Source: Schmidtea polychroa
Taxonomy: Eukaryota
NCBI GenBank assembly: GCA_044892525.1
Contig: CM097886.1
Span: 28,458,001 to 28,522,000 of the forward strand
DNA length: 64,000 bases
Direction of reading: 5' to 3'
The notes beneath the pieces are model-generated. The model was not told the origin of the DNA. It worked only from the letters and a program-made list of their open reading frames with translations, and made no database searches. Below, one piece after another: positions 1 to 37,552 of the stretch. Positions within the stretch are counted from its first letter, which is position 1. Every line of letters begins with the position of its first letter. The translations under genes were made by a program, and so were the position numbers.

Positions 1-606
1 GAGATTTATGATCTTTTAAAGATTCCAACTGTTTCTGAAGCTTCCAATTCAACAAAAAATAATCAAATTAAAGTCTTTTCCAATAAAGACAGCGAAATCA
101 TTCTGCAAGGACTGTCAGAAAAGGAAGTAGACGATGAAGCAGGGATTTACGAGTTGTTAAAAATAGGCGAAATTAACCGAAAAGTTGGGTCGACTTTGTT
201 AAATATATCTAGTTCTAGATCACATTTGATATTATTCATTAAAATTAGCGGTACCAGTGAGGTTCAAGGAATCACTAGCAGAGGAACATTAACTCTGTGC
301 GATCTAGCTGGCTCAGAAAATATTTGTAAATCTGGCGCTACTGGCACCCGATTTCAAGAAGCAACGTCCATAAATAAATCTCTAACAACTCTTGGTAGAG
401 TTTTCGATTCTCTTCGAAAGAATCAAAAACCTGCTTACAGAGAAAGTAAATTAACTCACATTCTTAAACCGACATTGGGTGGAGATTCTAAATGTCTTTT
501 ATTCGTTAATGTTCGTTCCGAATCTGAGAATGTTCACGAAACGTTAGGGACTTTGTATTTTGGTCAGAATGCAATGCAAGTTATGCCAGAAAAATGTAAG
601 CATTGA
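1..606 (+). CDS. Kinesin motor domain, C-terminal part (kinesin-14/KIFC-like C-terminal motor; 5' end outside window)
   Basis: Frame +1 is open from base 1 (EIYDLL...) and has SSRSH, DLAGSE, INKSL, PAYRESKLT and LGGDSK motifs. The stop follows right after the motor domain. Confidence 0.9.
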   Translation, partial: EIYDLLKIPTVSEASNSTKNNQIKVFSNKDSEIILQGLSEKEVDDEAGIYELLKIGEINRKVGSTLLNISSSRSHLILFIKISGTSEVQGITSRGTLTLCDLAGSENICKSGATGTRFQEATSINKSLTTLGRVFDSLRKNQKPAYRESKLTHILKPTLGGDSKCLLFVNVRSESENVHETLGTLYFGQNAMQVMPEKCKH

Positions 607-1296: not shown

Positions 1297-1328
1297 TGTT
1301 GGGCTAGAACTGATTTCTAGATCCAAAG
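1297..1328 (+). mobile_element. First 32 nt of an older same-family LTR (insertion target), ending in TSD AAAG (1325-1328)
   Basis: TGTTGGGCTAGAACTGATTTCTAGATCCAAAG matches the LTR head in the opposite orientation. It continues as AAAGTTAGAATC... at 23299. Confidence 0.8.
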
Positions 1329-2359
1329 TGGTGGGTTACTGATGATCAAATATTTTGCTCTTTAGTGCTGTTACCAGCGTAACCCAAGATACAACATTGT
1401 TTACCGCTTGATACCCGTTGAATGATCAACGTTGGTACTGTATCAAGAGGGTGAGTGCTCGCAAAAAGTGAGCGCACTACTTGCACTGTAATTGTCGAGC
1501 ACTCTACTGGGTTCACGGACTATCGTTAGAAGATATATGTCCGATTTACGCAGGTCCCTTATTATAATTACTTTCTCAACTATGCCTATACAAACTTTCT
1601 ATCCTCAAACGATCATAAGTCATCAGGAATCATACATTAATCTATTAAAACCTGTTCATACAATACCACATCTAAAATGTTTGAATATAAATTAAGTGAA
1701 ACATAGCCATAGTTTATTAAACATACCTTAAGAAATTTTTGAGGATAATGAATTTAATTATAACACAATCAAAAAAAAAACAACTTATATATTAGTGAAC
1801 ATACAAATAAGGGTCAGAAATTTCACCAACCACAACAACAAAATATAATAACTTTACAAGAACCATGATTGTTTATGACCGCGTATTATTTGACTAAGCG
1901 TATTTCGCGGTGACTATGACTGTCCTAGTTGACCTACAATGACACTCCCCTTTGTTGAGCCCGGGTAGTTATAGAGAGATGGTTAGATCAACAATCAAAA
2001 TCTCACAATACATTTTTGTTAATATTATTTTTTTAATTCAAGTTAAATAAATTCAAAATACATCAATAACTGTTACAAAACAATTCCCTATATAATTTTA
2101 AGAGATACTTCTAGAAAATTCAAATTGACTCAAACTTTATTTATTTTTAAAAATTTGTTTTCTATTAATAATAGATTTTTTTTCTAGAATTTTAAGAAAA
2201 TTTTAATTAAAATTTATAATAATATTAAATTAATTTTACAATACTCGTTACTTACATTTTAAACAAAACTTATACGTCAGTTTGAAGTATTTTAAACTTG
2301 TTTTAACTAATTATTTTTTTTTTAACAAACCATTTTTTTTATATTAGTAATATTTTGCA

Positions 2360-3028
2360 ATGAAAATTTTATCAGTTTTTCTTTTCTAATCATTGTTTAC
2401 TATGTAATGTCAGCTACAGTTAATGAAAATAATTGCGAAGGTATTTGGCACTTATTTTTATTATATTTAAAAATTGTTCAGTTTGTGTTAAGTTTGTGAG
2501 ACGCCTGAAAGATAGTATAGATGGAGACGAAAGTACAAATATCGAAAATATTGAAAATAAATTCAAAAAGATGAGCAAAACAAGTAAGGGAAAAGAATAA
2601 AGTCTGGTAAGGTATTATAACTGATTAATATAAAATTGTAATTTATTTTTAGTGTTATTATATTGGAGGATTGGTAACATCTACTGCATATATTGTAAAA
2701 CATTTGTCTCAGCCTTTGAGTTGGGTTATGCCCGCTGAAAAAGTCTGAAAAACTAAAAGCAATTGATTCACAAATTTGTGAATTAAAATATGGTATGTTC
2801 AGTTAAGATTTTAAATATTAATTCAACTATTTTTCAGACAAACCTATTGATCTTACTGGTATTAATGTAAACAAAGCTCGCGTTAAAGATCTCAAAAAAT
2901 ATTAGAAAGCTGGGGTGAAGAATGTAAAGGTTGTACAGAAAAACTGATTTTATCCGATTAATAAACGAAAAATGCCCATTTATGATCTTAAAGCAGCCAA
3001 GCAAAGAAATAGATTCAGGATGTTGTAA
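2360..3028 (+). pseudogene. MANF: MANF/ARMET-like pseudogene, 4 exons, inside 3' LTR
   Basis: Exons 2360-2440, 2482-2606, 2653-2792, 2838-3028 with GT-AG introns. They give a signal peptide, CEVCVKF, CYYIGG, DSQICELKYDKPIDL, RVKDLKK and WGEECKGCTEK (CxxC). Several 1-2 nt deletions and a TAA at 2598-2600 disrupt it. Confidence 0.88.
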
Positions 3029-3989
3029 TTAAATAAAACATTAAAATTCCCTTTGATCGAATATATTTGTGAGAAACAATTTGGAATTATTTAATTGTGG
3101 AAATCTAAAAGAAATTCTGAAAGATATTTTAATATAAGTTTTCCATTTTCCAACCCCAGGAAATGTATTTCATCAGGATGGTCCATCAACTGAGCTCGAA
3201 GGACTTTTTGGTATGAATATGATTCAAAGAAACAATTATGTGAATAAATTTGATGATCGAAATCAATAAACTTAGTCTTTGTTTTTCTTTTTCTTCTTTT
3301 GATCTAGTTAAAAATAAATTTAGTCTCTTTGATTTAGTTAAAAATAAATCCAATAATTTTAATAAATTAATAAATGATTCTACTAAATTACTTCAGTAAA
3401 CTACTCTATCCTCGTTCCATCACCTTAAAGGGGTTGTGACCATCACATAACAGGGGTCTTGAGGGGGAAGGTTATCGTATTGTTATAAGGTTGTTTTATA
3501 AATCGGTATGTACATACACACATCCACTTATATATACACATACATATACACCCACACATATATACATATATGGATATAATTTAAATTGTTAATATTGATG
3601 TCGTTTTCAGGGGGGGGGTGTTACTAAAAATAGATTTTAGTGATTTTCCGTAATTTTATTGGAAGATAGGGCCATTGAAACTAAATTTAGAGATAGGGGA
3701 ATCCCAAAATCAATAATTTGTTTTATAATTTTATTTTTATGAAATAAAGATAATTATTTTAATAATATAATAATAATAATGATAATAGTAATAATAATAG
3801 TAAGAGTNNNNNNNNNNNNNNNNNNNNNNNNNNNNNNNNNNNNNNNNNNNNNNNNNNNNNNNNNNNNNNNNNNNNNNNNNNNNNNNNNNNNNNNNNNNNN
3901 NNNNNNNNNNNNNNNNNNNNNNNNNNNNNNNNNNNNNNNNNNNNNNNNNNNNNNNATAATGAATGTAAATTTATATTTTTATAGGATTA

Positions 3990-4760
3990 CTACATATGGG
4001 GGGGGATCATTTACGAAAATTTATGGAATTATTTTTTTGGTTCAAATATAATTTAACTCTATACGAAGATGATACAATTCAGTATACTTAAGGAATAGTT
4101 AATGGCTACATGAGTTGAAGGGGGGTCATTTATGAAAATTTTCAATTTATATTTTAAAATATAATATAAGTTAAATATATATTAAGATAAGTTAATTTAG
4201 TATGCTTAGGTAATGGGTAAAGACTGTATAATTTTGAGGGGGGTCATTCATAAAAATTTACAATTTATATTTTTAAATATTATATAAGTTAAATGTATAT
4301 TTAGGTAGTAGTTGATGACGATATGGTTTATTGGGGGGTCTTTGATGAAAAATTTTCAACTATGATTTTAAAGGTAATCCAAGTTAAGTATATATATTAA
4401 ATAGTCTAACTGAGTGTATCAGGTAGTGGTTGATGGTTATATGAATTAAGGGGGGTCATTTATCAAAATTTTCCAAATTTATATAGTAAAGATAATGTAT
4501 TAATGTATTTAGACAATAATTAATGGTTAAGTGATCTGAGGAATTATTAAGTTTGATAACTGCACGTATATAAGTTAATTTATTGCTATATATATTGTTC
4601 TCGACTAATGTATAGTTTGAGGGGGGTACTCATGAAAAAGGTAAGTTATACTTTTATAAGTTTCAAATATACATATATAAGTTAGATTATGAATCTGGAC
4701 ATTTGTTTCGACCATTACGTAACTTGGGGGGGGGGGTATTTATAAAACATTTACAACTTA
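3990..4760. repeat. Diverged ~100-170 bp tandem repeat built on G6-9 tracts (GGGGGGTCATTTATGAAAATT), ~7 copies; second copy at ~20320-21090
   Basis: G-run motifs at ~3997, 4119, 4237, 4333, 4450, 4620, 4726. Confidence 0.7.
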
Positions 4761-4789
4761 TTATAGATTATATTTTTATCGCTAACGTA

Positions 4790-5400
4790 GTTTATATTTT
4801 ATACTTTTATGACCAAATTAAGATTATAATTTATAGTCTTTCAGCTAATATAAGTTTATAATTTATATTTTTATGAAATTAAATTTATAGTTTATGTTTT
4901 TAAAGCTAATATAATTTTATAATTTATACTTTTGAGTTTATAATTTATATTTTATGAAGTTAAGTTAAATTTATAGTTTATATTTTAAAGCTAATATAAT
5001 TTTATAATTTATATTTTTATGAAGTCAAATTTATAGTTTATATTTTAGAGCCCATATAATTTTATAATTTATACTTTTAAGTTTATAATTTATATTTGGT
5101 GAAGTTCAATTTATAGTTTATATTTCCAAAGCTAATATAATTTTATAATTTATATTTTTATGAAGTTAAGATTATAATTTATACTTTTATAATTAACTTA
5201 GAGTTATAATTTATAATTTTTATCGTCAATACAAATTTGTAATTTATAAATTCAAGAAATTAAATTTATAATTTATACCTTTATAACTAATCATAATTTA
5301 TATTTTGAAGAAATTAAATCTATAAGTATAATTCACATTTTTATGAAATTGAGATGATAATTTATACTTTTATGGGTTTACGATTTGTATTTTTATAGTT
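4790..5400. repeat. AT-rich minisatellite (TTATAATTTATA(C/T)TTT units) in LTR; second copy at ~21120-21720
   Basis: Many tandem TTATAATTTATA variants. Confidence 0.7.
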
Positions 5401-7199
5401 AGTTTAGAGTCTATTCAATTTAAAATCCAAGTCTTGCTGATACGCATGTCGAACACCTTTATGAATACTATCACTACTAAATCAATCATTTTTAAAAAAT
5501 CTTTACTTTACACTATTACTAGAAAATTTATTTAAGGCATTTATAAATCTAGATTCGACAAACGCATAGGTAGAGTTGGTTCTTGATGATATTTAACCGT
5601 CTACATTAATTGTGAATTGTAGAGTTGTGATTAATTTAGGTCTGAGATCTACTCTGTTTATTAACCTTAGTGTATCGTATTGTGATGATTTTGGATGTAG
5701 ATTTTAACTATGTAAATTATTCATGCATTGAAAGTCGGGAAGAGTGCTTGCTTACACGGCCCCACTGTGGCCGCTACGACAAGCCCTACTGTTGTGTGGA
5801 GTCGAATCATATCGCTGTCGACCTTTAATACATAATTATTGCCATAACAGAGGGGTTTTATCGACATAACTCTATGGTAGAACCATAAAGTGGCCGACCT
5901 CTGATGACCGAACAAAAAGAAACCAATAATATTGATAAGTGCGTGCCAGGCAGTGGCCTGCAATCATTGTGAACTGTGTACTCATCGATGATAAAGTGCA
6001 TAGGTGCAGGGTTGGCTGGGATCTCGCTTCAAAATCAATGATAACCGACGATCTCACTCAAACCTACATTTCTATAGTTAAAAAGAAATAATGAAAACAA
6101 GGTTTCAATAATAATAACTTATAATTCACAATGAAATCGTTCTTACCTACAATCTCAGAAAAATCAAAACCAAAAATTTGGCATAAGAGTAAAAATATTC
6201 ATTTGCATTTTTTTCCTTTCTTCCAAAGTGACGAAATGTGTTAGTTTATATAGCCTCTGTTTGACGTGTAAGTATACATGCGTGCATTGATGCAGTAAAA
6301 CAAATTCAGATTATTTTAATTCTCGAACATTCGATTTTTAATTTTTATCGATTTTGATGGCGATTTTTCAGTAAGAATTTTTGTTTTTATTTTTGAAATT
6401 TTATTTTCGAATTACTTTTTATTAAATTTGCCTCCATGATGGATTTCAGCATTTCCAGAACATTCCATGCTAAATTTAATCTATTTCTTATTTTTAAATT
6501 GTTTTTTATGATTTCTTTTCTAAAATATTTATTTTTTAAACTAAAATATTTATTTTTTATAAATTTTATTGGGTCGTTTGGCGGTCATGATGGATTTCGC
6601 CATTTTTATGAATTGTTCTGGATTTTTATTCAAAATATCGATATAATTTTCTTTACGTAAGATTTTATGAAGATTTTCTTTAATTTTCTTTTTTAATTTT
6701 TACTAATCGCCTTTATTCGAATTTGTTTTTTGTTGTTTTATGTCTTTCGGTTATATTTGAGTAAGTTTTCGTGTAATACTTCTTGCTCGTGTTTTATTTT
6801 ATTTTTAATTCAGATGTTTTATTTTTGGGTATATTATCTCTCTATTATCATTGTTTACTTGGTGTTTTATATATTTTTATTTAAGTAAACTTAATGCTGG
6901 GTATGCGTGTTGTGTACAGACACATTTCGTCCCATTCCTAACTTTGGGTCTAGAAATCAGTTCTAGCCCAACATAAAACACTCGGGGGCCCATAAAATTG
7001 CGACCCGCAATTTAATCAAAAGTTCAAGATATAATTAGACAGAATTGGTTGCACTGTATTACAAGTGCCTACATGTAATTGGGTCCACGAGCTACAGGGT
7101 CGTGACCTCAATACCCACATACATAAAAAGTTTCTACTGATACACTACATGCTACAGATTGGTTTAAAGATGAAGAGAAAGAAGACCACGGTCGGTCCA

Positions 7200-9009
7200 C
7201 ACAAAATTTAATCAAATTGTTATGCTCAAATAATATCAAAGTAATATATAATATTGGCATCAAATCACAATAATAGTCAAATCATATCATTGTCGAATCA
7301 TGTCAGGGTCATTGTTAAATCATATCTAGATCATTTTCAGATCATTGTCAATCGAATCAGGATCATTGTCAACACATAATAAGAACATTGTCAATCAACT
7401 CAAGATCGTTGTCATATTATATCAGGATCATTGTCGGTTTATATCAGGATTTAAACACTCGGTTGTTCGGGATCTCGTCTCGATGACGGCTCTAATTTTG
7501 AAGTTTGTAGAAGATAGATTTGATAGATTTGGTCTCTGGGTATTGGTTCTTCTATTAGAATGCGAATGCTTCGGAATTGTTCTTTCAACTTGAGAGTTTT
7601 GGTGCTTTCATGGATTTGAGTGGGTTAAGGGCTATCAAGCTCAGTATTGTTATTTATCATGAGATTCGCTGCTAACAGGATCAGTACTGTTATGGATTCG
7701 GGGTTTTTTTTACATTCAAAAAAAAAATTTTTTTTTTTATTTATTTTTTTTTCTCTGTTGACCTTGTTTTGATTGCCACTTCTTTCTTTATCTCTCGTCA
7801 CATGCTCACTGTTTTCATTAGTTGGATTGTATCAGTCGAGTTGAGTTCCTCTTCGAGGTTATTTGATTCAGTGTGTAGGGTATTGTTTACTGTCGTCATT
7901 ACTCCTTTCCAGATTTCCGTGAACATCTTTATTAGGACATTTTAGTATGCGAAGTCTTCGTTGAAGGTAGTTGATATTCTCCTCTTTATTCCTTCTAAAG
8001 TTTTGGTCATTGTCTCATGGTTCATCGGGATTTTGTCAATAGTTGTTATTATTTCCATCTATATCTCTCTCAATGTTTTTATTATTTCATCTTGAGTAAT
8101 TGTCTTTTCTTTGACTGCGTTATTTACCCTTTCCTTTATTTCTTCGAGCGTCTTTGTTTCATAGTTGCTCGGACATTCGTTGACAGTCATCATTATTCGC
8201 TGCTTTATTTCTTCTAAGATTTTTATTATTATTGTCATCTGGGATGTGGCTGATTCTTGCTGTGGTTCTCTCTTTAATTTCTGCTTTTCTCGTTACAATT
8301 CGTGTAGTACCTCCATGGCATAATCTACATCATCATAGGGTTTGACGTGTCCTATTAATAATCTTCTACACACTTTGTCCACACACAATAGTCTCTCCTC
8401 GAATTCATCTGACTTGACCTAATATTTTCTTATCAGCTCATAATTAATAGTTTTGTTCCTCCACTTCTCTCCACTTTCCCTCGGCATTCTGCCATGATAG
8501 CGTTTAATTTCGGATTTTCTACTTTGGCTATAATTTTGTTTGTTTACAGGGCTACTTTTCCCTTCTTTTATGCCTCTCTCGTTGAGTCCGGTTCCCCAGT
8601 TCCTGGTAGGCCGGTTATCCATTCAACTATACTCGTGATATCATCATGCTGACGGCCTTCGCGTAATCTCCTGATTTCTCCTGTCTACCATTTTATTTGG
8701 CTTATCAACTGTTTGTTATTGTATTCTAATTGTGCGATTATTTGTTGTTGCTCCTTTATTCTTGTTATATATATCGAGTTTCTATTGATGCTCTCCATTA
8801 ACGCATTCATAACCAAAGAATATTTTTGTCATTAATTCACCTTGTGTTCTTCACATTGATCCTGCTGACTAACTTGGTTGGTTTATCGTTGTACTTGTAT
8901 CAATTTCTACTATTTATGTCTGATTAATATTTACTAGTGGTTGATTTCCCAATTCAACAACATGTGGCATCCTCGTTTGATATACTTGATCCTCGTTTCT
9001 CTGATTCAT
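7200..9009 (-). pseudogene. Decayed accessory ORF3 of the LTR element (coiled-coil-like, unknown function)
   Basis: ATG at 9009 (MNQRNEDQVYQ...) is followed by long mostly-open stretches (LMESINRNSIYITRIKEQQQIIAQLEYNNKQL; TKTLEEIKERVNNAVKEKTITQDEIIKTLRE) broken by stops and frameshifts. DNDPD-like repeats occur near 7260-7450. Confidence 0.45.
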
Positions 9010-9146
9010 TTCTTATTTTTAATACGTAGTTATCATACCCATTTTTTTGTACTTTTTTTTTTTTTTTTTGAACATATTACTAATCTACTAAACTACTTTT
9101 AACATCACGTTTATATACACACTATTTACATCGACTCATCACTTTC

Positions 9147-10655
9147 TTATACCATTGTTGCCAGGGGACCTGAATGCAATGTGCGCATTCCCCCATATCT
9201 TTCATCCGTTAGTCGGTATATGTCAAATTCGTTTACACAATCGTCTAGGGTTTGTATTCTGAGTAATTCTTGCGTCCATAGTCTGCTTGACCTTGGATCT
9301 TCAATCGCTTCGTACTCTTCTGGATTCGGGTCTTCTGTTGGAATACCATATTCGGAATTCTCCACTTGTGGCCATCTTTTTCTGCCTTTAGGTTTTTGTT
9401 TACATATTTTGGAGGTTCTTATCCATTGGATTATTATTGATGTTATCACTGCACTCATTATTGCGCTAGCGATCCACATCATTTTAACGGTTATCAGTGT
9501 CTTGTTGTTGAATTTTCCTGTCGTCATCATCATTTTAGTTTCTGTTGTAGTTGCCTCCTGTGTTTTATTTTTCTTGAGCATCTGGTATAACTGTTTCGTT
9601 TCTTCTGCCGTTAGATGTTCGTTTCCTTTTGGCTTTTCCACTTCTTTTGGTTTTCTGGTTGCCAATGGTATGTTTATCAACCGTGGTCGTTGTCTGGTTA
9701 TTGCTTGGCATGAACTTAAATCGCTTCCGTTTTTAAGAACGCATATGTGGTATCGTCCCTTTCTTTCTCCTATTGTCATTTTAACTTCTGCACCTTTGTC
9801 AAGTAGTGTTTCTATGCAGTCGACTATTCCTGTCCTGTTTAGTACACATACTCTTACTATTGGTTCTTCACCTTGGTTTCTGACCGTGATTACTTCTTCT
9901 CTTTTCTTGTTGAATTCGACATTTACTAGTACTTCTCGTCTCTCATCTTTGATCCATATTACTGTTGTGTTTTTCTTGGTTTGGTGCTGTCCTCTTATCA
10001 TTCCCGTACGGGATTGTTTCTGGGGTTTCTTAATTGCCGGTTTGATCCTTGGTTGATATCTTTTACTAGCCATACTTTTTGGCCTGCTTTTTATTTGCGC
10101 GGTTTTAACTGCTTTACATACCACTATTGCCTGGGTACCTGCGCATACCACCATGTTGGTGTTTGGTTTTACGTTTGTCCAAAAAAATTCGCGATCTCGT
10201 TTCATGTCTACCGTTATACATATGTCTTCGTCATCTCTAAAACATATTTGCGTTGTTGGCAAATTTCCTTTATCTATTATTTCGATACCTTCCATTGTAG
10301 TTTTAATTGCGACATGTACTCCGGTTTCGTTAGCTCTTTCCAATTCTTTTTCTTCTGATGTTATGTCTTCGCAAATGTTGTAGTCTCCGCATAATTCAGG
10401 TTCTCCATTTTGACTATTGAAAATCCTCCCTTTTGTTATCGTTCTAAAATCACAACTTACTCCGGTTCCTTCCATCAATTGGATGCATATCCCGACCGCG
10501 TTTCCGTTGTTGCCGCTGACTTTTATCATGAATAGTTCGCCTTCTTTCAGATTTCCTCTCGTAATTCGCGTATTTTTCGTTTCTGTTAGGCAAATTGACG
10601 TTAGTATTATTAGGATAATTTATAGTAGGAGTGACTGGTTTAGATTCTTCCGCAT
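9147..10655 (-). CDS. Env-like type I membrane glycoprotein (signal-like peptide interrupted by TAA at 10620-10622)
   Basis: The 460 aa ORF extends upstream without stops to MRKNLNQSLLL*IILIILTSICLTET. It has 6 closely spaced Cys pairs, several N-x-T/S sites, a TM segment MWIASAIMSAVITSIIIQWI, then a basic stop-transfer stretch and a Tyr-motif tail. Confidence 0.7.
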
Positions 10656-13600
10656 TACTATGTTATGCATTGGGGACTTTCGTTTGTCGTTCTCTGTTTC
10701 ATTATGTTGGTTGTCTTCACTTTGGTCTGAGTTGTCCTCAGTATCCTTCAAGTCTTCGTCGTCATCTTCTGACTCCTTGTCTTCTTTATTATCTCGTTCG
10801 CCTGAGTTCCCATTTATGTTGTTCCTTTCATGGTTCCCGTCGTCTTCCTCATTTTTGTCGTTATGGTCTTTGTCATTTTTTCCACTCCGGCCTTTTCCAA
10901 AAATGTCGTCTTCGACATTTGATGTTTTGATCATTTCTTCGCGTTTATTTAAATGACTATTCTTCAGTGATTCTCTTACTATTGTCACTTTTCTGTTGGA
11001 TGGCCATGGTAATTCTTGTTCACATCTGATTCCTTCGTATTCACCATATTTTGATATCAACTCCGTTGCTCGTTTATATTCAAATCCCATAATTTCAGTA
11101 TCCCGTATGTCTTTGACAAACTGTTTCATTAGCTGCGGCCATCTTTCCCTCAATCTGTTAATATATTTCTTCGCTTGATCGATTGCTTGTTTTACTAAGA
11201 TTATTTGATTTTCCTTCCTTATCTTTTGTTCGGTCTTCTCTATTTCTGGTTCCACTTCATTGTTGAATATCTGTTGGATTTTCCTCAGTATTTCCGTTAC
11301 TGATGTGTTGTCTCTGTTTTTCTTTAAGATTAAGATATTAACTTCGTTTGACCATCCCATCACATCTACTAGATGTATGCTCATTTTAACTTTATAACAA
11401 TTGTCGTATAGCAGTTTATTCTTTTCCTGTACCCAATTATACAGTTCATCCATATTTGTTACTTTTAATTCAGTAATCTGCATCTGAGTTTCGGGGTGTT
11501 GAATACTCACCCGGCATTGATCTGGCTCAACTTCTTTCAATTTTCCTTTATATTTCGTCACCAAATCTTTCCATGTTGCCGTTAATATACCTCCTTCCCA
11601 CTGGTATGCTTCAGTTATCAGTTTTATACATTTTCTGTATGTTGGTTCGTTGATATAGCTTTCATTTCGTTCTCTTTCCGATACCGTGTCGGAAATTTCC
11701 TCAAATATTTCCTCATCGTCATTTTCTATCGGTGATTCCATATCGTCGCTCTCAGCCTCTTCGTTATTTTGAGATGTTCCTTGTTCATTATTTTCATCAC
11801 TTGATTGAAATAATTCACTTCTCAGGCTACTCACCGCACTTTTCTCGTCTTCCTGGTCCGTCTGATCATTCTGTATTTGTCTCAGCATGTTTATATTGGC
11901 TCTGTTACTTGGTTCTTTCTTTTCGAACCACTCATTTTTCCTGAACCAGTTGTCTTTTACTTTTTCTTTTACTTGCTCATCCGTTAAATTTGGTTCTTCT
12001 CTTCTAATTCTATCTTCAATTTTTTGTAGTAATACCCTCTGAATTCGATTCTTTGTAACAATCTCGTTGCTTTTTGGTTCGTGCCCTGTTTCATCTCTTC
12101 TTCTTCGTCTCTTTTCTTTTTCTTCTTTGGTGAACCTTTGTATTATTTTTATTTTATCCTCGCTACTCAGTTCTGTCAATTGCTCCGTCAATTGATGTGA
12201 CCCATTTTCTTTTATCACTTTTGTCTCGTTGATTACGGCCATATCGCTCCCTTCCTTGTTAACACACTGCTCCGCAGTGTGCGGTTCCCCTTTGTTCATT
12301 AATCTCATCATATTTATTCTTCCGGTGTTGGTTTCTCGCTTTTTCCATCTTTTTTGAATTTCTCTGGCTTTTTCGTTTAGTGGTCTCTGCCCTTCGATTC
12401 GTTGCTGATCTTTTTGTTCTCTTGTTGGTCGTTTTTGGATATCCTCTGGTATCCGTTGGATCATCTTTTTCAACTGTCCTATTTCCTGCATGATGTTGAC
12501 TTGTATATTTTGACTTGACTCGTTTGCTCTTGGTTGATTATGCTTTGTCCTCATCGCGCATTCTCTCGCCACATGTCCAAGTTGGTTGCAACTGTAGCAG
12601 GTTCTAGTCCTTCCTCCTCTCATCGACATCATTGGTCCTCGGCATATATTTTCTGTGTGACCCCTTTTACCGCAATTTTGGCACATCCTTGTCTTATAAC
12701 ACTCGTTGCTCCAATGTCCTAGTCGTTGACATATGTTACACTTCCGATTATTGTTCTCGTTGTTCCTGAAATTATTAGTGTAAAATTGAATATTACCTCT
12801 GTTATCTGGATTTGTCGTTTTTGGCGCCTTGAACAACTGTTGCGATTCTGAGATAAATTGATTCATTCCTAGATTTCCATTGTTGGTTTGATTAATTTCG
12901 GTTGTCGTTGTTGGTGTTGTAGCTATTGGTACTGCTGCCATTGCTGCTACTTGTACTGGAGTCAAGTAGTTTTCACATTTATTAGCGATTTTTAATGCTT
13001 CCTCGAGCGTGTCTGGTGCTCGGCACCCCACTGTTGCTCGTATGTCCTTTCTTTTCATACCCTCTACGAATACGGCTATTATCTTGTCTTCCGGAACTGT
13101 TTGATTTGAGTCGAATGCTTCTTTTGCCAGTCGTCTTAATTCACATGCATATGGTGCGTTTGACTCATTGTATTTCTGCTTTCGATGCAGAAAATCCAAC
13201 ATTTTGCGATTTACTTCCCTTTTGCTACCGAATGTTTTTATTAAAAAATTCTTTATTGATTTCCATGTTTTTAGTTTTGTTGCATCACACTTTGCCTCTA
13301 AATATACATCTTGTGCACTTCCTCTTAAATATAATGGTATTCGCTCTCGTACGACTATGTCTGGCCAGTGACATATCGTAATATATACCTCGAATTCTTT
13401 TATAAACGTTTCTACTTCATTAATATTCCCATCGAATGGTTCTCCTCGAAATCTTTCTCTAAATTCTCCAACATTGACGTTGACATGGTTTATCTCGGGT
13501 GTGTATGTCGACTCTGACCCATTCGGGTTGTTCACTTGGTTTCCGTCTAACATTATATCTCGACACAAACTTGTTATGCCTGAACTACTATCTTCCTTGT

Positions 13601-14069
13601 CTGTTGGTTTGATATCAGTTACCGGATATAATTCGTTTCTTTTAATATCGTCGCTGTTTTCACTGTCGTTGGTTAAGCTGTCTGATTCAAATAATGTTTT
13701 CACTGACGCTGGTCTCTTATTGATTCTTCTGTTTCTCTTGGCTCTTTGTCTCCCTGCGTTTCCTAATAAACTAGAGCCTCCTTTGCTCTGCGATCTCGTT
13801 CGATTGGCTTTATTATCAATTTTTCTTGCTTTAATAATCTCTTTTGAATTTCACTGTGTTTCGTTGGCCAACGCTTTAATTTTCCTCTTGGTATTTAATT
13901 TGACTTTGTTTACCTTTCTTCTATCCTCGTTTGATTCTCTTGATTCTTTGCTTGGTTTCTTTTGAATTTTTGATTTCTCTTTATTACTCTTGAATTCTTG
14001 GCTTCTATTGATTTCCTTCTGAATGGTTTGCTTTATTCTAAAATAATTAACACTCCTAGTACATATCAT
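10620..14069 (-). CDS. Gag-like protein with three CCHC zinc knuckles and a long charged C-terminal extension (one in-frame TGA at 13851-13853)
   Basis: Capsid-like PFDGNINEVETFIKEFE...LYLRGSAQDVY; knuckles CNICQRLGHWSNEC, CQNCGKRGHTENIC, CYSCNQLGHVAREC. The 72 aa ORF 13851-14069 is in the same frame. No protease D(T/S)G, RT or IN motif seen. Confidence 0.88.
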
Positions 14070-14554: not shown

Positions 14555-15065
14555 TTTACCATCGGCTCCCTGGCCGGTTTAATCAACTCTCTTATTTCAT
14601 TTAAATCATTTCACTCAATTACCATCGGCTCTCTGGCCGGTTTAATCAACTCATTTTAATCCCATGAAGTCTTTTACGACTCCTCGACGCCTGGGCTTTT
14701 ACACCGTTACGCCATATAATCCATTATTACCCATCAACGCTTTGGTTTGTTAGACCTCCACGTCGGCATCGGCTTCCGGCCGGTTTAATCATAATCTGAA
14801 GTCTTTTACGACTCCTCGACGCCTGGGCTTTTACACCATTACGCCATATTATCCATTATTTCCCATCAACGCTTTGGTTTGTTAGACCTCCACGTCGGCA
14901 TCGGCTTCCGGCCGGTTTAATCATAATCTGAAGTCTTTTACGACTCCTCGACGCCTGGGCTTTTACACCATTACGCCATATTCGCGGTCTTCGGTCCCTG
15001 ACCGGTTTCAAATGCCCTAAATGAGGTTTCTTCAACCCCTCGACGCCTTCGGTTTTTACACCTAC
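14555..15065. repeat. GC-rich tandem repeats in the pre-gag leader (132 bp x ~2.5 plus 62 bp x 2)
   Basis: CCATCAACGCTTTGG at 14731 and 14863; GAAGTCTTTTACGACTCCTCGACGCC three times; CCATCGGCTC...GGCCGGTTTAATC at ~14559 and ~14621. Confidence 0.85.
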
Positions 15066-16386
15066 TATCGTCCCTACCGCGATTAAATTGAGTTGACAGT
15101 TGGCTTTCGGACTAATTAAAAATTTAAGGCTCCTCCTACTCAAATTCCTAATCTGCTGAGGCCTCACAACTGGCTCAATTCTTGGCCGCTTATTGAAAAG
15201 AGTCTAATACCGGTAACTCTAATCTCATCGCCGTTTCACTGGGCCTATCGGTACTCGGTGTGGGCATCCGGGTTTTGTACCGACCCCTGCTAGCAATAAT
15301 CACGAAGAAAAAACATCCTATCTATCAGGATTTAAAAAACACGGAAATACCTAATCGCCTCGATCTTGATTCTCAAAAGTGATGAACCAGATCTCCCGAC
15401 TAGTGAAGATAAAAGGAAATTGGATATGCAGTTGACTTTCGGTCCTCCGCCTCACAACTGGTCCAATCTTGGTTGCCTGTTGAGTACGAGTCCTTTACCG
15501 GTTGACCCGCATCTCACAACCGTTTCACTGGGCTCCTTAATACTCGGTGTAGGTAACTGGGTCTCTCTCGCTCGCTACCCTTCCGGGTTTTTGTATCAAG
15601 TCCCGCTAGCCAATCAAAAAAAAATGCGCCCAATACTCGGTGTGGGTATCCGGGTTTTTGTATTGGGTGATCCAGCATCATCAGTCCCTTGGCTGATAAT
15701 CTCCTGGACACTACAGTCCGGTGGTTAGCCGCTGTACTCGGGTGCCTCATCACTCGCTAGGGAAAAATTCATATCAATGAGTACTCCTCATCCGATTTGA
15801 AGTCCAAAAACGGTTTCTTCAAATCCGCAGCTGCTCTCGGATAATGTTAATTTTTAATCTTTTGGTGCACATTTTCAATTTTTATTTTTATCTTTTTCTT
15901 TTTATTTACCCTTCTAGTTTGTCCTAGTCTCCCAAATTAAAAAAAAATATAATAATCGCGTTGGTTCATTTCCCACAAGTGGTGATCAGTCACTCGACAG
16001 AAACTCCCCAACATTTGCGATGGGCCCAATTATACTCTTCTCATCAAGGTGATCAGGATTTCCCCATCCGGGTAAGCATCGTAGGGACGATATGCTTCTC
16101 ATCCCCTTATGGTCCTGTCTCTCTATGCCAGAAATAATAAAACAAAAACAGGAAAAAAAATGGTAATCGTACTGATCTTATAGATCAGCTCACACTTGAT
16201 GCGATCCCAGCCAGTCCTGTATTTAATTCACGGCTTTCGCCAATTTAATTTGTGTGTTGCTTGTCTATTTATTTAACGGCTTTTGTGTATTTCATATGTC
16301 TATGTTCAACGTATGTTTTATACCTTTCGGTTGCTATTATGGAATTAGTTTTACTAACTTTTTACTAACTCACACTCAGCAGCAAT

Positions 16387-16823
16387 TCATTTCATCATCT
16401 TTAATTTTTCTACATCTCCCTTAGGGATGTATACTACTACTCTTTCTCTCACGTTTGCATCACATACATTACAATGGTTTCAGTTTCAATGCATAATCTT
16501 GGTAATAACATCGATGTCCGCAATGTACCATCATTATTTTTATCTCATTGCTTCTACACACACAACATTTGAACTCATTATCGATCGCCTCTCTTATCGC
16601 ATCTTCAACCGTTTAAATTTTTATCTTTAATTCTTGCCATTTGATGTTAAATTTGGCCTTATCTAAACGTAAATTCTGAATCTGATATACTCTTTGAGTA
16701 GTTAATTCCACATTTGGTGTAGCAATTCTCGTCATTATACACAATTCATCATCAACTGGTCTTGGTTTTAAGATCAGTCCTTCTTGGATGTTTGCCAACT
16801 GCTCTGCTTTTCAATTCAATCAT
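16387..16823 (-). pseudogene. Decayed ORF0: helical segment plus C-terminal IAP-type C3HC4 RING finger
   Basis: Reading through TAA 16613-16615 and one 1-nt frameshift gives CCVCRSNEIKIMMVHCGHRCY[Y]QD[Y]ALKLK/HCNVCDANVRERVVVYIP. The spacing is C-x2-C-x11-C-x-H-x3-C-x2-C-x6-C-x2-C, with two Cys lost by single TGY>TAY changes. Confidence 0.72.
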
Positions 16824-17660: not shown

Positions 17661-17678
17661 ATCCCGGCTGAGCCCCCA
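17661..17678 (-). promoter_or_regulatory. Primer-binding site for tRNA-Pro
   Basis: Minus strand TGGGGGCTCAGCCGGGAT matches the canonical tRNA-Pro PBS TGGGGGCTCGTCCGGGAT at 16/18 positions, 8 nt inside the 5' LTR. Confidence 0.85.
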
Positions 17679-18718
17679 AATTTGTATGGTGGGTTACTGA
17701 TGATCAAATATTTTGCTCTTTAGTGCTGTTACCAGCGTAACCCAAGATACAACATTGTTTACCGCTTGATACCCGTTGAATGATCAACGTTGGTACTGTA
17801 TCAAGAGGGTGAGTGCTCGCAAAAAGTGAGCGCACTACTTGCACTGTAATTGTTGAGCACTCTACTGGGTTCACGGACTATCGTTAGAAGATATATGTCC
17901 GATTTACGCAGGTCCCTTATTATAATTACTTTCTCAACTATGCCTATACAAACTTTCTATCCTCAAACGATCATAAGTCATCAGGAATCATACATTAATC
18001 TATTAAAACCTGTTCATACAATACCACATCTAAAATGTTTGAATATAAATTAAGTGAAACATAGCCATAGTTTATTAAACATACCTTAAGAAATTTTTGA
18101 GGATAATGAATTTAATTATAACACAATCAAAAAAAAAACAACTTATATATTAGTGAACATACAAATAAGGGTCAGAAATTTCACCAACCACAACAACAAA
18201 ATATAATAACTTTACAAGAACCATGATTGTTTATGACCGCGTATTATTTGACTAAGCGTATTTCGCGGTGACTATGACTGTCCTAGTTGACCTACAATGA
18301 CACTCCCCTTTGTTGAGCCCGGGTAGTTATAGAGAGATGGTTAGATCAACAATCAAAATCTCACAATACATTTTTGTTAATATTATTTTTTTAATTCAAG
18401 TTAAATAAATTCAAAATACATCAATAACTGTTACAAAACAATTCCCTATATAATTTTAAGAGATACTTCTAGAAAATTCAAATTGACTCAAACTTTATTT
18501 ATTTTTAAAAATTTGTTTTCTATTAATAATAGATTTTTTTTCTAGAATTTTAAGAAAATTTTAATTCAAAATTTATAATAATATTAAATTAATTTTACAA
18601 TACTCGTTACTTACATTTTAAACAAAACTTATACGTCAGTTTGAAGTATTTTAAACTTGTTTTAACTAATTATTTTTTTTTTAACAAACCATTTTTTTTA
18701 TATTAGTAATATTTTGCA

Positions 18719-19387
18719 ATGAAAATTTTATCAGTTTTTCTTTTCTAATCATTGTTTACTATGTAATGTCAGCTACAGTTAATGAAAATAATTGCGAAGG
18801 TATTTGGCACTTATTTTTATTATATTTAAAAATTGTTCAGTTTGTGTTAAGTTTGTGAGACGCCTGAAAGATAGTATAGATGGAGACGAAAGTACAAATA
18901 TCGAAAATATTGAAAATAAATTCAAAAAGATGAGCAAAACAAGTAAGGGAAAAGAATAAAGTCTGGTAAGGTATTATAACTGATTAATATAAAATTGTAA
19001 TTTATTTTTAGTGTTATTATATTGGAGGATTGGTAACATCTACTGCATATATTGTAAAACATTTGTCTCAGCCTTTGAGTTGGGTTATGCCCGCTGAAAA
19101 AGTCTGAAAAACTAAAAGCAATTGATTCACAAATTTGTGAATTAAAATATGGTATGTTCAGTTAAGATTTTAAATATTAATTCAACTATTTTTCAGACAA
19201 ACCTATTGATCTTACTGGTATTAATCTAAACAAAGCTCGCGTTAAAGATCTCAAAAAATATTAGAAAGCTGGGGTGAAGAATGTAAAGGTTGTACAGAAA
19301 AACTGATTTTATCCGATTAATAAACGAAAAATGCCCATTTATGATCTTAAAGCAGCCAAGCAAAGAAATAGATTCAGAATGTTGTAA
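18719..19387 (+). pseudogene. MANF: MANF/ARMET-like pseudogene, second copy inside 5' LTR
   Basis: Same exons, introns and disabling lesions as 2360-3028; differs by GTA/CTA and one G/A. Confidence 0.88.
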
Positions 19388-20127
19388 TTAAATAAAACAT
19401 TAAAATTCCCTTTGATCGAATATATTTGTGAGAAACAATTTGGAATTATTTAATTGTGGAAATCTAAAAGAAATTCTGAAAGATATTTTAATATAAGTTT
19501 TCCATTTTCCAACCCCAGGAAATGTATTTCATCGGGATGGTCCATCAACTGAGCTCGAAGGACTTTTTGGTATGAATATGATTCAAAGAAACAATTATGT
19601 GAATAAATTTGATGATCGAAATCAATAAACTTAGTCTTTGTTTTTCTTTTTCTTCTTTTGATCTAGTTAAAAATAAATTTAGTCTCTTTGATTTAGTTAA
19701 AAATAAATCCAATAATTTTAATAAATTAATAAATGATTCTACTAAATTACTTCAGTAAACTACTCTATCCTCGTTCCATCACCTTAAAGGGGTTGTGACC
19801 ATCACATAACAGGGGTCTTGAGGGGGAAGGTTATCGTATTGTTATAAGGTTGTTTTATAAATCGGTATGTACATACACACATCCACTTATATATACACAT
19901 ACATATACACCCACACATATATACATATATGGATATAATTTAAATTGTTAATATTGATGTCGTTTTCAGGGGGGGTGTTACTAAAAATAGATTTTAGTGA
20001 TTTTCCGTAATTTTATTGGAAGATAGGGTCATTGAAACTAAATTTAGAGATAGGGGAATCCCAAAATCAATAATTTGTTTTATAATTTTATTTTTATGAA
20101 ATAAAGATAATTATTTTAATAATATAA

Positions 20128-20187
20128 TAATAATAATGATAATAGTAATAATAATAGTAAGAGTGGTGATGTTATTGGTAACAATGC

Positions 20188-20241
<54 letters not shown>

Positions 20242-20286
20242 CAATAATAATAATAATAATATTAATAACGGTAATAATAATAATAA
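20128..20286. repeat. (AAT)n microsatellite within LTR (N gap at the equivalent site in the other LTR)
   Basis: Direct reading; explains the poly-Ile ORF 20136-20387. Confidence 0.95.
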
Positions 20287-23200
20287 TGAATGTAAATTTA
20301 TATTTTTATAGGATTACTACATATGGGGGGGGGGGATCATTTACGAAAATTTATGGAATTATTTTTTTGGTTCGAAATATAATTTAACTCTATACGAAGA
20401 TGATACAATTCAGTATACTTAAGGAATAGTTAATGGCTACATGAGTTGAAGGGGGGTCATTTATGAAAATTTTCAATTTATATTTTAAAATATAATATAA
20501 GTTAAATATATATTAAGATAAGTTAATTTAGTATGCTTAGGTAATGGGTAAAGACTGTATAATTTTGAGGGGGGTCATTCATAAAAATTTACAATTTATA
20601 TTTTTAAATATTATATAAGTTAAATGTATATTTAGGTAGTAGTTGATGACGATATGGTTTATTGGGGGGTCTTTGATGAAAAATTTTCAACTATGATTTT
20701 AAAGGTAATCCAAGTTAAGTATATATATTAAATAGTCTAACTGAGTGTATCAGGTAGTGGTTGATGGTTATATGAATTAAGGGGGGTCATTTATCAAAAT
20801 TTTCCAAATTTATATAGTAAAGATAATGTATTAATGTATTTAGACAATAATTAATGGTTAAGTGATCTGAGGAATTATTAAGTTTGATAACTGCACGTAT
20901 ATAAGTTAATTTATTGCTATATATATTGTTCTCGACTAATGTATAGTTTGAGGGGGGTACTCATGAAAAAGGTAAGTTATACTTTTATAAGTTTCAAATA
21001 TACATATATAAGTTAGATTATGAATCTGGACATTTGTTTCGACCATTACGTAACTTGGGGGGGGGTATTTATAAAACATTTACAACTTATTATAGATTAT
21101 ATTTTTATCGCTAACGTAGTTTATATTTTATACTTTTATGACCAAATTAAGATTATAATTTATAGTCTTTCAGCTAATATAAGTTTATAATTTATATTTT
21201 TATGAAATTAAATTTATAGTTTATGTTTTTAAAGCTAATATAATTTTATAATTTATACTTTTGAGTTTATAATTTATATTTTATGAAGTTAAGTTAAATT
21301 TATAGTTTATATTTTAAAGCTAATATAATTTATATTATATTTTATGAAGTCAAATTTATAGTTTATATTTTAGAGCCCATATAATTTTATAATTTATACT
21401 TTTAAGTTTATAATTTATATTTGGTGAAGTTCAATTTATAGTTTATATTTCCAAAGCTAATATAATTTTATAATTTATATTTTTATGAAGTTAAGATTAT
21501 AATTTATACTTTTATAATTAACTTAGAGTTATAATTTATAATTTTTATCGTCAATACAAATTTGTAATTTATAATTTCAAGAAATTAAATTTATAATTTA
21601 TACCTTTATAACTAATCATAATTTATATTTTGAAGAAATTAAATCTATAAGTATAATTCACATTTTTATGAAATTGAGATGATAATTTATACTTTTATGG
21701 GTTTACGATTTGTATTTTTATAGTTAGTTTAGAGTCTATTCAATTTAAAATCCAAGTCTTGCTGATACGCATGTCGAACACCTTTATGAATACTATCACT
21801 ACTAAATCAATCATTTTTAAAAAATCTTTACTTTACACTATTACTAGAAAATTTATTTAAGGCATTTATAAATCTAGATTCGACAAACGCATAGGTAGAG
21901 TTGGTTCTTGATGATATTTAACCGTCTACATTAATTGTGAATTGTAGAGTTGTGATTAATTTAGGTCTGAGATCTACTCTGTTTATTAACCTTAGTGTAT
22001 CGTATTGTGATGATTTTGGATGTAGATTTTAACTATGTAAATTATTCATGCATTGAAAGTCGGGAAGAGTGCTTGCTTACACGGCCCCACTGTGGCCGCT
22101 ACGACAAGCCCTACTGTTGTGTGGAGTCGAATCATATCGCTGTCGACCTTTAATACATAATTATTGCCATAACAGAGGGGTTTTATCGACATAACTCTAT
22201 GGTAGAACCATAAAGTGGCCGACCTCTGATGACCGAACAAAAAGAAACCAATAATATTGATAAGTGCGTGCCAGGCAGTGGCCTGCAATCATTGTGAACT
22301 GTGTACTCATCGATGATAAAGTGCATAGGTGCAGGGTTGGCTGGGATCTCGCTTCAAAATCAATGATAACCGACGATCTCACTCAAACCTACATTTCTAT
22401 AGTTAAAAAGAAATAATGAAAACAAGGTTTCAATAATAATAACTTATAATTCACAATGAAATCGTTCTTACCTACAATCTCAGAAAAATCAAAACCAAAA
22501 ATTTGGCATAAGAGTAAAAATATTCATTTGCATTTTTTTCCTTTCTTCCAAAGTGACGAAATGTGTTAGTTTATATAGCCTCTGTTTGACGTGTAAGTAT
22601 ACATGCGTGCATTGATGCCGTAAAACAAATTCAGATTATTTTAATTCTCGAACATTCGATTTTTAATTTTTATCGATTTTGATGGCGATTTTTCAGTAAG
22701 AATTTTTGTTTTTATTTTTGAAATTTTATTTTCGAATTACTTTTTATTAAATTTGCCTCCATGATGGATTTCAGCATTTCCAGAACATTCCATGCTAAAT
22801 TTAATCTATTTCTTATTTTTAAATTGTTTTTTATGATTTCTTTTCTAAAATATTTATTTTTTAAACTAAAATATTTATTTTTTATAAATTTTATTGGGTC
22901 GTTTGGCGGTCATGATGGATTTCGCCATTTTTATGAATTGTTCTGGATTTTTATTCAAAATATCGATATAATTTTCTTTACGTAAGATTTTATGAAGATT
23001 TTCTTTAATTTTCTTTTTTAATTTTTACTAATCGCCTTTATTCGAATTTGTTTTTTGTTGTTTTATGTCTTTCGGTTATATTTGAGTAAGTTTTCGTGTA
23101 ATACTTCTTGCTCGTGTTTTATTTTATTTTTAATTCAGATGTTTTATTTTTGGGTATATTATCTCTCTATTATCATTGTTTACTTGGTGTTTTATATATT

Positions 23201-23298
23201 TTTATTTAAGTAAACTTAATGCTGGGTATGCGTGTTGTGTACAGACACATTTCGTCCCATTCCTAACTTTGGGTTTAGAAATCAGTTCTAGCCCAACA

Positions 23299-24230
23299 AA
23301 AGTTAGAATCGTGACAAAATGTGTCGGAACATAGCATGCATACCCAGAATGAAGTTTACTTAAAATGAAATATATAAACATCAAATAAACAAATAAAATA
23401 GAAAAGCATAACACACAAAAATTAAAAATATCCAAATAATAATAAATTAAAAACCAAGCAAGAAGTATTGGACGAAAACCTACTCAAATATAACCAAAAC
23501 ACATAAAACAACCAAAACAAATTCGAATAAAAGTGGTTAGTAAGCATTAAAAATTAAATTAAAGAAAATTTCAATAAAATTCTACTTAAAGAAAAATTAT
23601 CCAGAACAATCCATAAAAAATGGCGAAATCCATCATGGCCGCCAAACGACTTAATAAAAGTTAGAAAATAAATATTTAAGTTTTAAAATAATAAAAATTC
23701 TAAAAAGAATATGAGATAGATTAAATTTATCATGGAATCGTCTGAAAATGCCCATATCCATCAATGAAGCAAATTTAGTAAAAAACAATTCAAAAATAAA
23801 AACAAAAATTATGACGTCAAAATTGATAAAAATTAAAAATCGGATGTTCTAGAAATAAAATAATTCAAATGTGTTTTACTGCACTAATGCACGCACACAA
23901 ACTTGCACACTAAAATAGGGTATATAAACTAAGACATTTCGTCACTTTTCATTCTTACTCTTATGCCAAAATTTTGATTTTGATCTTTCTAAGATTGAAA
24001 GTAGGGACGATTTTGTTGTGAATTATAAATTATTATTATTTAAACCTCGTTTTCATTTTTTCAATATGCTAAAAAGGTGTTGGTTTGAGTGAGATCGTCG
24101 GTTATCATTGATTTTGAAGCAAGATCCCAGCCAACCCTACACCTATGCATCTTTTCGTTGTTGGGTCCAAAACTCAGCAACGGCTAGCGAACCCAAGTCA
24201 ATAAAATGAATTTTTCTTTCTGGTCGCCAA
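23299..24230 (+). mobile_element. Older diverged LTR head of the same family (remainder of the insertion target)
   Basis: Reverse-complement similarity to ~22230-23265, e.g. GAGTGAGATCGTCGGTTATCATTGATTTTGAAGC and CTTATGCCAAA. Confidence 0.8.
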
Positions 24231-24698: not shown

Positions 24699-25163
24699 TC
24701 ACATCTTAGATATTTGAGTCACTTTTGATCTTTCTTGTTCTTGCTCTGTCACCCAGTCTCTCTTCAATATTTCGCGAGTATTTCGCCCTAACCGCTTGCG
24801 CTTCGGTTTGCTTGACTGTGCCGGTGGATATATTTCGGCCAGTTCTATGTGCAGTGGGCGAATCTGAGCTGCTATAGTCTCGTTGATGAATTTCTGGTTC
24901 AACTTGACTTCTAGCTTGCGTATCTGCAACTTCAACGCACGGATTTCTATTTGATCTTGTTCCGCCTGGGTCTGCAGTTGTATGATCTGGGCTGTTTGTT
25001 TTTTCATTTCAGCCGGACTAAACCAAGTGCCTTCGAATTCCCGGCACCTCCCTTTGAGTTTTTCGACCCTAACTCGAAGGTCTTCCGCTTGTTGTTGTGC
25101 CTGCTCGTGGTCCTTCCGTAAATTTTCAAATAGCTTGAACACTGAATAGAAATAATTGTTCAA
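24699..25163 (-). CDS. Coiled-coil ORF (154 codons, basic KPKRKRLGR patch) abutting the diverged LTR tail; unknown product
   Basis: GC-richer open frame with E/Q/K/L heptad-like composition. There is no ATG start (M-Y-T-stop in frame just upstream), and a possible acceptor TTCTATTCAG near 25140. Confidence 0.4.
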   Translation of the reverse strand: MNNYFYSVFKLFENLRKDHEQAQQQAEDLRVRVEKLKGRCREFEGTWFSPAEMKKQTAQIIQLQTQAEQDQIEIRALKLQIRKLEVKLNQKFINETIAAQIRPLHIELAEIYPPAQSSKPKRKRLGRNTREILKRDWVTEQEQERSKVTQISKM

Positions 25164-28446: not shown

Positions 28447-28525
<79 letters not shown>

Positions 28526-37500: not shown

Positions 37501-37552
37501 TTATTTGGACAAATAAACGTGAAAATTCAGTGGATAATTCAATATTCGACAT
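25708..37552 (-). CDS. DNAAF5: Dynein axonemal assembly factor 5 (HEATR2), 7 exons
   Basis: complement(join(25708..25995,28543..28941,31969..32388,32440..32697,34348..34610,36551..36661,36712..37552)) has GT-AG introns and totals 2580 nt (859 aa). Motifs include EPSEEIR, LKDQMDF...RPNLGCR, LPNLIWQSGRTAEALR and LLIHLDD. Confidence 0.88.
26234..27720 (+). mobile_element. Penelope-like retroelement RT/GIY-YIG remnant in DNAAF5 intron
   Basis: FYYLIKTHK...IRPIVS, KQVKGLPMGS, YARYVDDIF, LLDLKI and FYRKP fragments with frameshifts. Confidence 0.8.
26912..27303. mobile_element. hAT (Charlie/Buster-type) MITE nested in the Penelope remnant
   Basis: TIRs CAGCGGTTCTCAA / TTGAGAGCCACTG; 8-bp TSD TCCTACAC. 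Confidence 0.9.
27867..28148 (+). mobile_element. Probable non-autonomous Helitron
   Basis: 5' TCTCTCTATATATAAAA after an A; 3' GCGAAGCGAACAGGGTCAGAGCCGCTAG. The next base is G rather than the usual T. Confidence 0.5.
28448..28524. repeat. (AAT)n microsatellite in DNAAF5 intron
   Basis: Direct reading. Confidence 0.95.
29104..29862. mobile_element. hAT (Charlie/Buster-type) non-autonomous element
   Basis: TIRs CAGTGGTTCTCAAA / TTTGGGAACCACTG; TSD CTCCAGTA / CTCTAGTA. Confidence 0.85.
30440..30900 (-). mobile_element. Possible MULE transposase remnant
   Basis: Minus-strand LLGQHDHWFNDGTY resembles the W-x-x-DGT(F) catalytic motif; otherwise degraded. Confidence 0.3.
31520..31800 (+). mobile_element. 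Penelope-like GIY-YIG endonuclease remnant
   Basis: RVTCNWCNATYIGET and EALII..FNPKI fragments. Confidence 0.65.
33106..33681. mobile_element. Tc1/mariner MITE with Stowaway-type TIRs
   Basis: TA|CTCCCTCCGTCCGGTAATATGGTATACATTT ... AAATGTATACCATATTTCCGGACGGAGGGAG|TA. Confidence 0.9.
35029..35232 (-). mobile_element. Tc1-like transposase remnant
   Basis: ILQHDNTFCY and WSMYLPDLSNIENL resemble QQDNAPCH and WPxxSPDLNPIENL. Confidence 0.6.

Follow-up and report, generated by a model that had tools for sequence, protein, structure and literature searches.

A probable pol-less derivative of giant Ty3/gypsy elements in a planarian joins Gag in frame to a predicted Ig/FN3-like membrane protein

A 64,000-nucleotide stretch of the Schmidtea polychroa genome (GenBank assembly GCA_044892525.1, contig CM097886.1, positions 28,458,001 to 28,522,000; hereafter, the window) contains, at positions 1329-23298, a long terminal repeat (LTR) retroelement of 21,970 bp that harbours a reading frame in which Gag is followed by a membrane protein. 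This frame probably belongs to a multicopy family (the short family) that arose by deletion from a giant Ty3/gypsy element of the Burro type, lost pol and kept Gag joined in frame to the last domain of the parent, a membrane protein predicted to be immunoglobulin (Ig)/fibronectin type III (FN3)-like; full-length elements (the long family) are likely to copy the short family in trans. The element in the window has the TG..CA LTRs, tRNA primer site, target-site duplication and Gag of a Ty3/gypsy LTR retroelement. It lacks autonomy: open reading frame (ORF) and Pfam scans between its LTRs found no protease, reverse transcriptase (RT), RNase H or integrase (IN), all four of which are present in the long family. 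Aligned over 5489 bases, the two 5.6-kb LTRs show 8 mismatches (0.15% divergence), and the insertion, into an older related LTR of opposite orientation (1297-1328 and 23299-24154), is very recent.

A sequence-only reading of this DNA had described a single minus-strand frame of 1641 codons (14069-9147), and we find the same frame; besides its terminal stop it contains just two, at codon 73 (TGA, 13851-13853) and at codon 1150 (TAA, 10620-10622). The TAA indeed falls within a signal-like stretch, MRKNLNQSLLL*IILIILTSICLTET; the Gag identity of the N-terminal part was borne out by Pfam matches to the capsid (Retrotrans_gag, E 3.9e-6) and to three zinc knuckles (zf-CCHC, E 2.2e-10); and in a hydropathy scan of the frame two segments stood out as hydrophobic, namely the signal-like stretch and a single transmembrane (TM) segment. 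Both stops had been taken for decay of one fused ORF, with programmed readthrough as the alternative, and the alignment of copies proposed to decide this gives a different answer for each. The TAA site is a sense codon in 19 of 19 best-matching other copies and in 44 of 44 further loci (the two sets overlap by few copies), whereas the TGA is a stop in all 30 copies compared, the window included, and in all 39 covering copies of the 44-locus set (5 of 44 have no coverage). The TAA is a private decay of the window copy, and the TGA is fixed in the family rather than decayed. Because other copies have a sense codon at the TAA site, readthrough there is not needed; because the TGA is fixed, the protein probably does not include the 72 codons upstream. 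What stands of the fused ORF is that Gag, linker, signal, ectodomain and TM segment share one frame in the family, but the upstream codons probably do not belong to it. An uninterrupted frame of 1565-1580 codons occurs in 55 of the 87 best-scoring matches out of 578 candidates, a sample biased toward good copies; counted from the start proposed below, the family frame is likely about 1,470 codons, not 1,641.

Readthrough of the TGA is unlikely because the upstream ORF has a ratio of nonsynonymous to synonymous diversity (piN/piS) of 1.0-1.1, and because in long sister copies the upstream frame runs for 36-54 codons before a stop and is closed a second time ahead of Gag, so that at least two stops lie between the upstream ATG and Gag. 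In each of the seven copies examined, an acceptor-like site (14038 in the window) is followed by 463-500 ATG-free bases that end at an in-frame ATG, whereas the same length upstream of the site holds 14-20 ATGs. This pattern suggests a 5' untranslated region after 14038 and a translation start at ATG 13553. A codon-position test of the stretch preceding this ATG found no significant periodicity (20/23/28, p=0.5).

The LTR-end/primer motif has 407 matches in the genome, each an LTR-primer site junction. Among 40 such places that were fetched, from the first 51 and with eight known short copies and three tandem repeats left out, 31 are of the long type, 3 are short and 6 have no anchors. The long-family frame comprises about 4,790 codons and encodes Gag, a MATH domain, a gB-type fusion glycoprotein (PF24664), protease, RT, RNase H, integrase, ankyrin repeats and the membrane protein; accessory ORFs encoding TRAF and BIR-RING proteins follow it. 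One long copy is 35.5 kb in length, with the LTR termini of the window element and a 4-bp target-site duplication, and the short family has the LTR ends and primer site in common with this parent. The window frame matches parent residues 6-967 (69%), 1251-1278 and about 4200-4791. On this comparison, the short family is the product of two in-frame deletions from a Gag-Env-Pol-membrane polyprotein, which removed most of the MATH domain, the gB-type Env, protease, RT, RNase H and integrase. The fusion of Gag to the membrane protein is therefore derived, not ancestral. The membrane part, previously taken for an Env, matches neither the gB-type fusogen of the parent (best E 0.64) nor any fusion-glycoprotein family in the Pfam scan; it matches the parent C-terminus behind integrase and ankyrin repeats, with 59-60% identity between the membrane domains of the window and the long family.

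The deletion junction motif has 114 genome matches, which gives at least 114 short copies, and the long-type junction sequence has at least 80. In a quick, unrooted Gag tree, 15 long copies are separated from nine short ones by a branch of 0.24 with support of 100. A search for long copies with short-family sequence gave none: a left-flank motif had 102 matches, of which the listed places were short copies, as were all four unclear places inspected. Another short copy, with a frameshift and a 3' deletion, lies 12 kb upstream of the window on the opposite strand (L062/L063). Some copies are arranged head to tail in arrays that repeat about every 16 kb, a period that would fit shared LTRs (e.g., C1:39424161-39471594 and C2:77913758-77932124). 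The accessory block of the long family (L104:8588-9982, L105:191-5037) encodes, beside the TRAF-like and BIR-RING proteins, three further ORFs of 250-533 codons, and the long-family LTR contains a coiled-coil ORF of about 155 codons (L105:9536-10000), also found in the older LTR fragment in the window (24702-25163, minus strand); the short-family LTR has no match to this ORF.

The membrane protein consists, in order, of the signal-like segment, three four-cysteine units (repeats 1 to 3), a stalk, one TM segment and an 87-residue tail; 12 of the 12 ectodomain cysteines are kept in the long family. For repeat 3 (87 aa), a model based on aligned natural stretches of repeats 2 and 3 has seven strands and a predicted local distance difference test (pLDDT) score of 86. 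Its structural matches are Ig-like sandwiches (Z 7-9.4) and FN3 domains (about 7), and none of the listed matches is a fusogen domain standing above background. Repeat 1 shows no significant similarity to repeats 2 and 3, the FN3 profile (PF00041) does not match the membrane protein, and a single-sequence AlphaFold prediction of the whole membrane domain reached a pLDDT of 38.6; only repeat 3 was modelled with confidence. The repeat 3 model and hydropathy point to an Ig/FN3-like type I membrane protein, an assignment carried over to repeats 1 and 2, and the membrane part is predicted to be a surface protein of this kind, not an envelope fusogen. Protein searches with the 490-aa membrane part found no relatives, the ESM Atlas gave no usable match, and PDB sequences gave nothing below E 0.78. 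Six protein matches of the membrane part were rejected: they are proteins with ankyrin repeats or Calx-beta domains, or unrelated ones, and the long family does not keep the ankyrin-like residues. The tail tyrosines are conserved, and in 86 of 86 matched frames the tail ends in T-x-V, the pattern of a class I PDZ-type motif. A class I PDZ-type C-terminal motif has been described in the rabies glycoprotein (PMC10419289).

Two distant families, 43-51% identical in pol, likewise encode a signal-ectodomain-TM protein behind integrase. These proteins end in ETRL and ETWV (chance about 0.02 per family, the families being related to each other), neither has a Met ahead of the second signal, and one shows FN3-like features (score 0.88, a lead only). 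A single copy of one of these two families, L147, lacks RT, RNase H and integrase and keeps the gB-type Env, protease and second membrane protein; judged from this one copy, that family has an independent RT/IN-less derivative of its own. In L147 (7577-10000, 5768-7225), the derivative is followed by an ORF that by eye resembles a DEDD exonuclease.

Between the short and long families, synonymous divergence (dS) is about 0.9-1.0, and the ratio of nonsynonymous to synonymous divergence (dN/dS) is 0.07 in the capsid and 0.27 in the C-terminal part. Values of 0.13-0.29 apply to the signal (0.14), two ectodomain blocks, stalk, TM segment and tail, and 0.48 to the basic hinge. Within the short family, piN/piS is 0.30-0.35 in Gag (shared versus single variants, p=0.008), which is still under purifying selection, and 0.33-0.58 in the linker, a moderate constraint.

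In the scheme we propose, short-family RNA would be copied in trans by the full-length helper family. Translation would begin at ATG 13553, the internal signal would direct the ectodomain co-translationally into the endoplasmic reticulum, and signal peptidase would free the type I membrane protein while Gag remains cytosolic. The short-family Gag might co-assemble with helper Gag-Pol and favour its own RNA. The membrane protein, Ig/FN3-like outside and with a PDZ-type motif inside, could serve in attachment or sorting beside the fusogen; this is the likeliest of its roles, although we rate it somewhat short of an even chance. A more speculative extension, which we hold only tentatively, is that elements of the Burro type are enveloped retroviruses with two glycoproteins, a gB-type fusogen encoded before pol and an Ig/FN3-like attachment protein after integrase; the short family would then be an animal satellite retrovirus with a capsid and attachment protein of its own, the helper's fusogen and enzymes, and hence its own cell targeting. 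Such a split between attachment and fusion is suggested by the second membrane protein that several gB-type elements have where env usually lies; to our knowledge, the split has no precedent among retroelements. The parts that a successful defective element keeps reveal those that act in cis or confer an advantage, here Gag and an uncharacterised surface protein, and the tractable flatworm host offers a direct handle on the question of whether elements of this kind pass from cell to cell.

In the structural polyproteins of alphaviruses and flaviviruses, the capsid precedes an internal signal and then a type I membrane protein, and the sequence-only reading had seen in the 1641-codon frame an ancestral Gag-Env polyprotein of that type, with both stops due to decay or readthrough. 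Gag and the TM segment do share one frame in most copies, with an internal signal between them. The likeness, however, is one of topology, with no class II fusogen and no homology, in a frame that arose by deletion; the fixed TGA, the extra stops of long copies, the predicted Ig-like fold and the lack of similarity to the element's real fusogen also speak against this view. We regard it as very improbable, and the deletion junctions and missing fusogen similarity refute the ancestry and Env identity of the frame. Expression of the membrane protein from an mRNA of its own, either spliced or internally started, as for errantivirus env, with the in-frame link incidental, would agree with the usual env position behind integrase and with a Met shortly ahead of the signal in both short and long families. 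This Met, however, occupies different codons in the two families and lacks an acceptor-like tract, and the two distant families do not have it. The region is covered by contigs from a run that was guessed to contain RNA, and one of them spans 9721-11100, which includes junction and signal, without a joint; the RNA nature of the run is uncertain, and contigs drop rare forms. On balance, a separate mRNA appears improbable.

Several observations weigh against our preferred reading, a trans-copied derivative that retains an Ig/FN3-like membrane protein. Within the short family, no amino-acid constraint is detectable in the membrane part (piN/piS 0.93-1.17; 51 nonsynonymous versus 12 synonymous shared variants), and the constraint of 0.27 seen against the long family may predate the deletions. 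The similarity of repeats 2 and 3 behind the fold alignment is weak (hhalign E 0.017-0.034, probability <3%), the fold matches of repeat 3 are generic, and no homology is detectable between the membrane proteins of the window and the distant families. In 21 of 31 long copies and 2 of 3 short ones, an upstream ATG shares the frame of the capsid, and the stretch before ATG 13553 has a short-versus-long dN/dS of 0.39, compatible with an earlier start. Contig coverage is not proof of expression. Gag alone might matter in the short family, the membrane part being an in-frame chance passenger that drifts; the contrast with Gag (piN/piS about 1 versus 0.3; shared variants differ, p=0.0006) and the youth of the copies, in which open frames can last without selection, suit this possibility, which we nonetheless consider doubtful. 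Both deletions and three widely shared ORF indels keep the frame, the linker is constrained, the 51 shared nonsynonymous variants include no stop (about three expected from singletons, a weak argument), and L147 likewise retains its second membrane protein. Slightly less probable again is that the membrane protein modulates or interferes with the host rather than forming part of a virion, through receptor blocking or as a signalling decoy acting via its tyrosine and PDZ motifs, in which case short copies may dampen the long family. The TRAF/MATH, BIR-RING and ankyrin cargo of the parent, the conserved tail motifs and, weakly, the occurrence of Ig/FN3-like folds in cytokine receptors are in line with such a function, but a location inside the structural polyprotein is just as compatible with a role in the virion.

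Table 1. Features of the retroelement in the window
Feature	Position	Strand	Basis or remark
5' LTR	17687..23298	-	5.6 kb, TGTTGGG...CCCACCA; aligned to 3' LTR
3' LTR	1329..6973	-	aligned to 5' LTR
Primer-binding site	17661..17678	-	8 nt behind LTR; complementary to 3' end of the genome's own tRNA-Pro(TGG) + CCA
Target-site duplication AAAG, 4 bp	1325..1328 and 23299..23302	+	flanks element
RING-finger-like accessory ORF, broken remnant in leader	16330..16810	-	motif read by eye
132-bp tandem repeat in leader	14623..14982	-	sequence
Upstream ORF, 72 codons, closed by family-fixed TGA	13851..14069	-	probably outside Gag; piN/piS 1.0-1.1
Candidate splice-acceptor-like site, conserved; then 484 ATG-free bases (putative 5' untranslated region)	14038..14049	-	sequence only
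Gag-linker-membrane ORF, putative, 1468 codons from conserved in-frame ATG	9150..13553	-	copy comparison
Capsid	13053..13337	-	Retrotrans_gag match
CCHC zinc knuckles, three	12558..12740	-	zf-CCHC match
MATH-domain remnant, short, between the two in-frame deletion junctions	10947..11012	-	junction motif found 114 times
Acidic linker, derived from region behind parent's ankyrin repeats	10653..10946	-	parent comparison
Internal signal-like segment, disrupted by TAA 10620-10622 in window copy alone	10584..10652	-	hydropathy, copy comparison
Ectodomain repeat 1, four conserved cysteines	10356..10577	-	fold suggested by cysteine pattern only
Ectodomain repeat 2, four conserved cysteines	10092..10328	-	sequence comparison
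Ectodomain repeat 3, predicted seven-stranded Ig/FN3-like beta-sandwich	9696..9956	-	structure model
TM segment	9411..9479	-	hydropathy
Cytoplasmic tail: four tyrosines, T-M-V end (class I PDZ-type), terminal stop	9147..9410	-	sequence
3' region: traces of parent's accessory-ORF block, TRAF and BIR-RING ORFs lost	6974..9146	-	parent comparison

The leader region with the broken RING-finger-like ORF is also common to the long family. The tRNA-Pro(TGG) genes occur in a tandem array with a 475-bp period (L220, C1:130.90-130.95 Mb), a pattern with 1577 matches genome-wide. Elsewhere in the window are a kinesin motor fragment (1-603, plus strand), DNAAF5-like exons (28198-37582, minus strand), another gypsy protease remnant (52831-53621, minus strand) and a kinase fragment (56404-56820, plus strand). 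Clusters of ORFs that by eye are Polinton-like lie in inverted arrangement between two LTR-end fragments (L058-L061).

Burro1/GYPSM1 are giant Gypsy-like LTR retrotransposons of planarians with a published frame of 4,873 aa (PMC6431247). The long family resembles them in its size (>30 kb, with an internal region of about 25 kb), three CCHC knuckles, MATH domain, in-frame env between gag and pol, and ankyrin and BIR cargo; the likeness, including that of the frame of about 4,790 codons, is one of layout. With env, pol and cargo deleted, the window's family is a derivative of this type rather than a full member, and the available text of that description names neither a post-integrase membrane protein nor an amplified deletion derivative (PMC6431247). 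The gB-type GAG-ENV-POL errantiviruses of Platyhelminthes have been catalogued, and an Env encoded within the gag-pol frame is already in the literature (PMC13524379). The parent's Env is of the same HSV/gB type (HSV, herpes simplex virus; PF24664) and occupies the same position, whereas the window's element has neither Env nor Pol; no mention of a second membrane protein or a non-autonomous form was found in the available text of that catalogue (PMC13524379). Our literature search, with Grohme 2018 and its supplements and Repbase lying outside it, found neither the second membrane protein nor this pol-less satellite in print. As a functional model only, the membrane protein may be compared with Drosophila Sas, a surface protein that crosses the membrane once and has a tail with a tyrosine motif, which binds the Gag-like capsid of dArc1 and targets vesicles to recipient cells (bioRxiv 2022.09.06.506798); Sas and dArc1 are host genes, with no homology shown. 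The plant TR-GAG elements (PMC4350172) are similar to the window's element in their LTRs and helper dependence. They are, however, shorter than 4 kb, with a coding capacity for Gag alone, whereas the element described here is 22 kb in length, resides in an animal host and has its Gag fused to a membrane protein.

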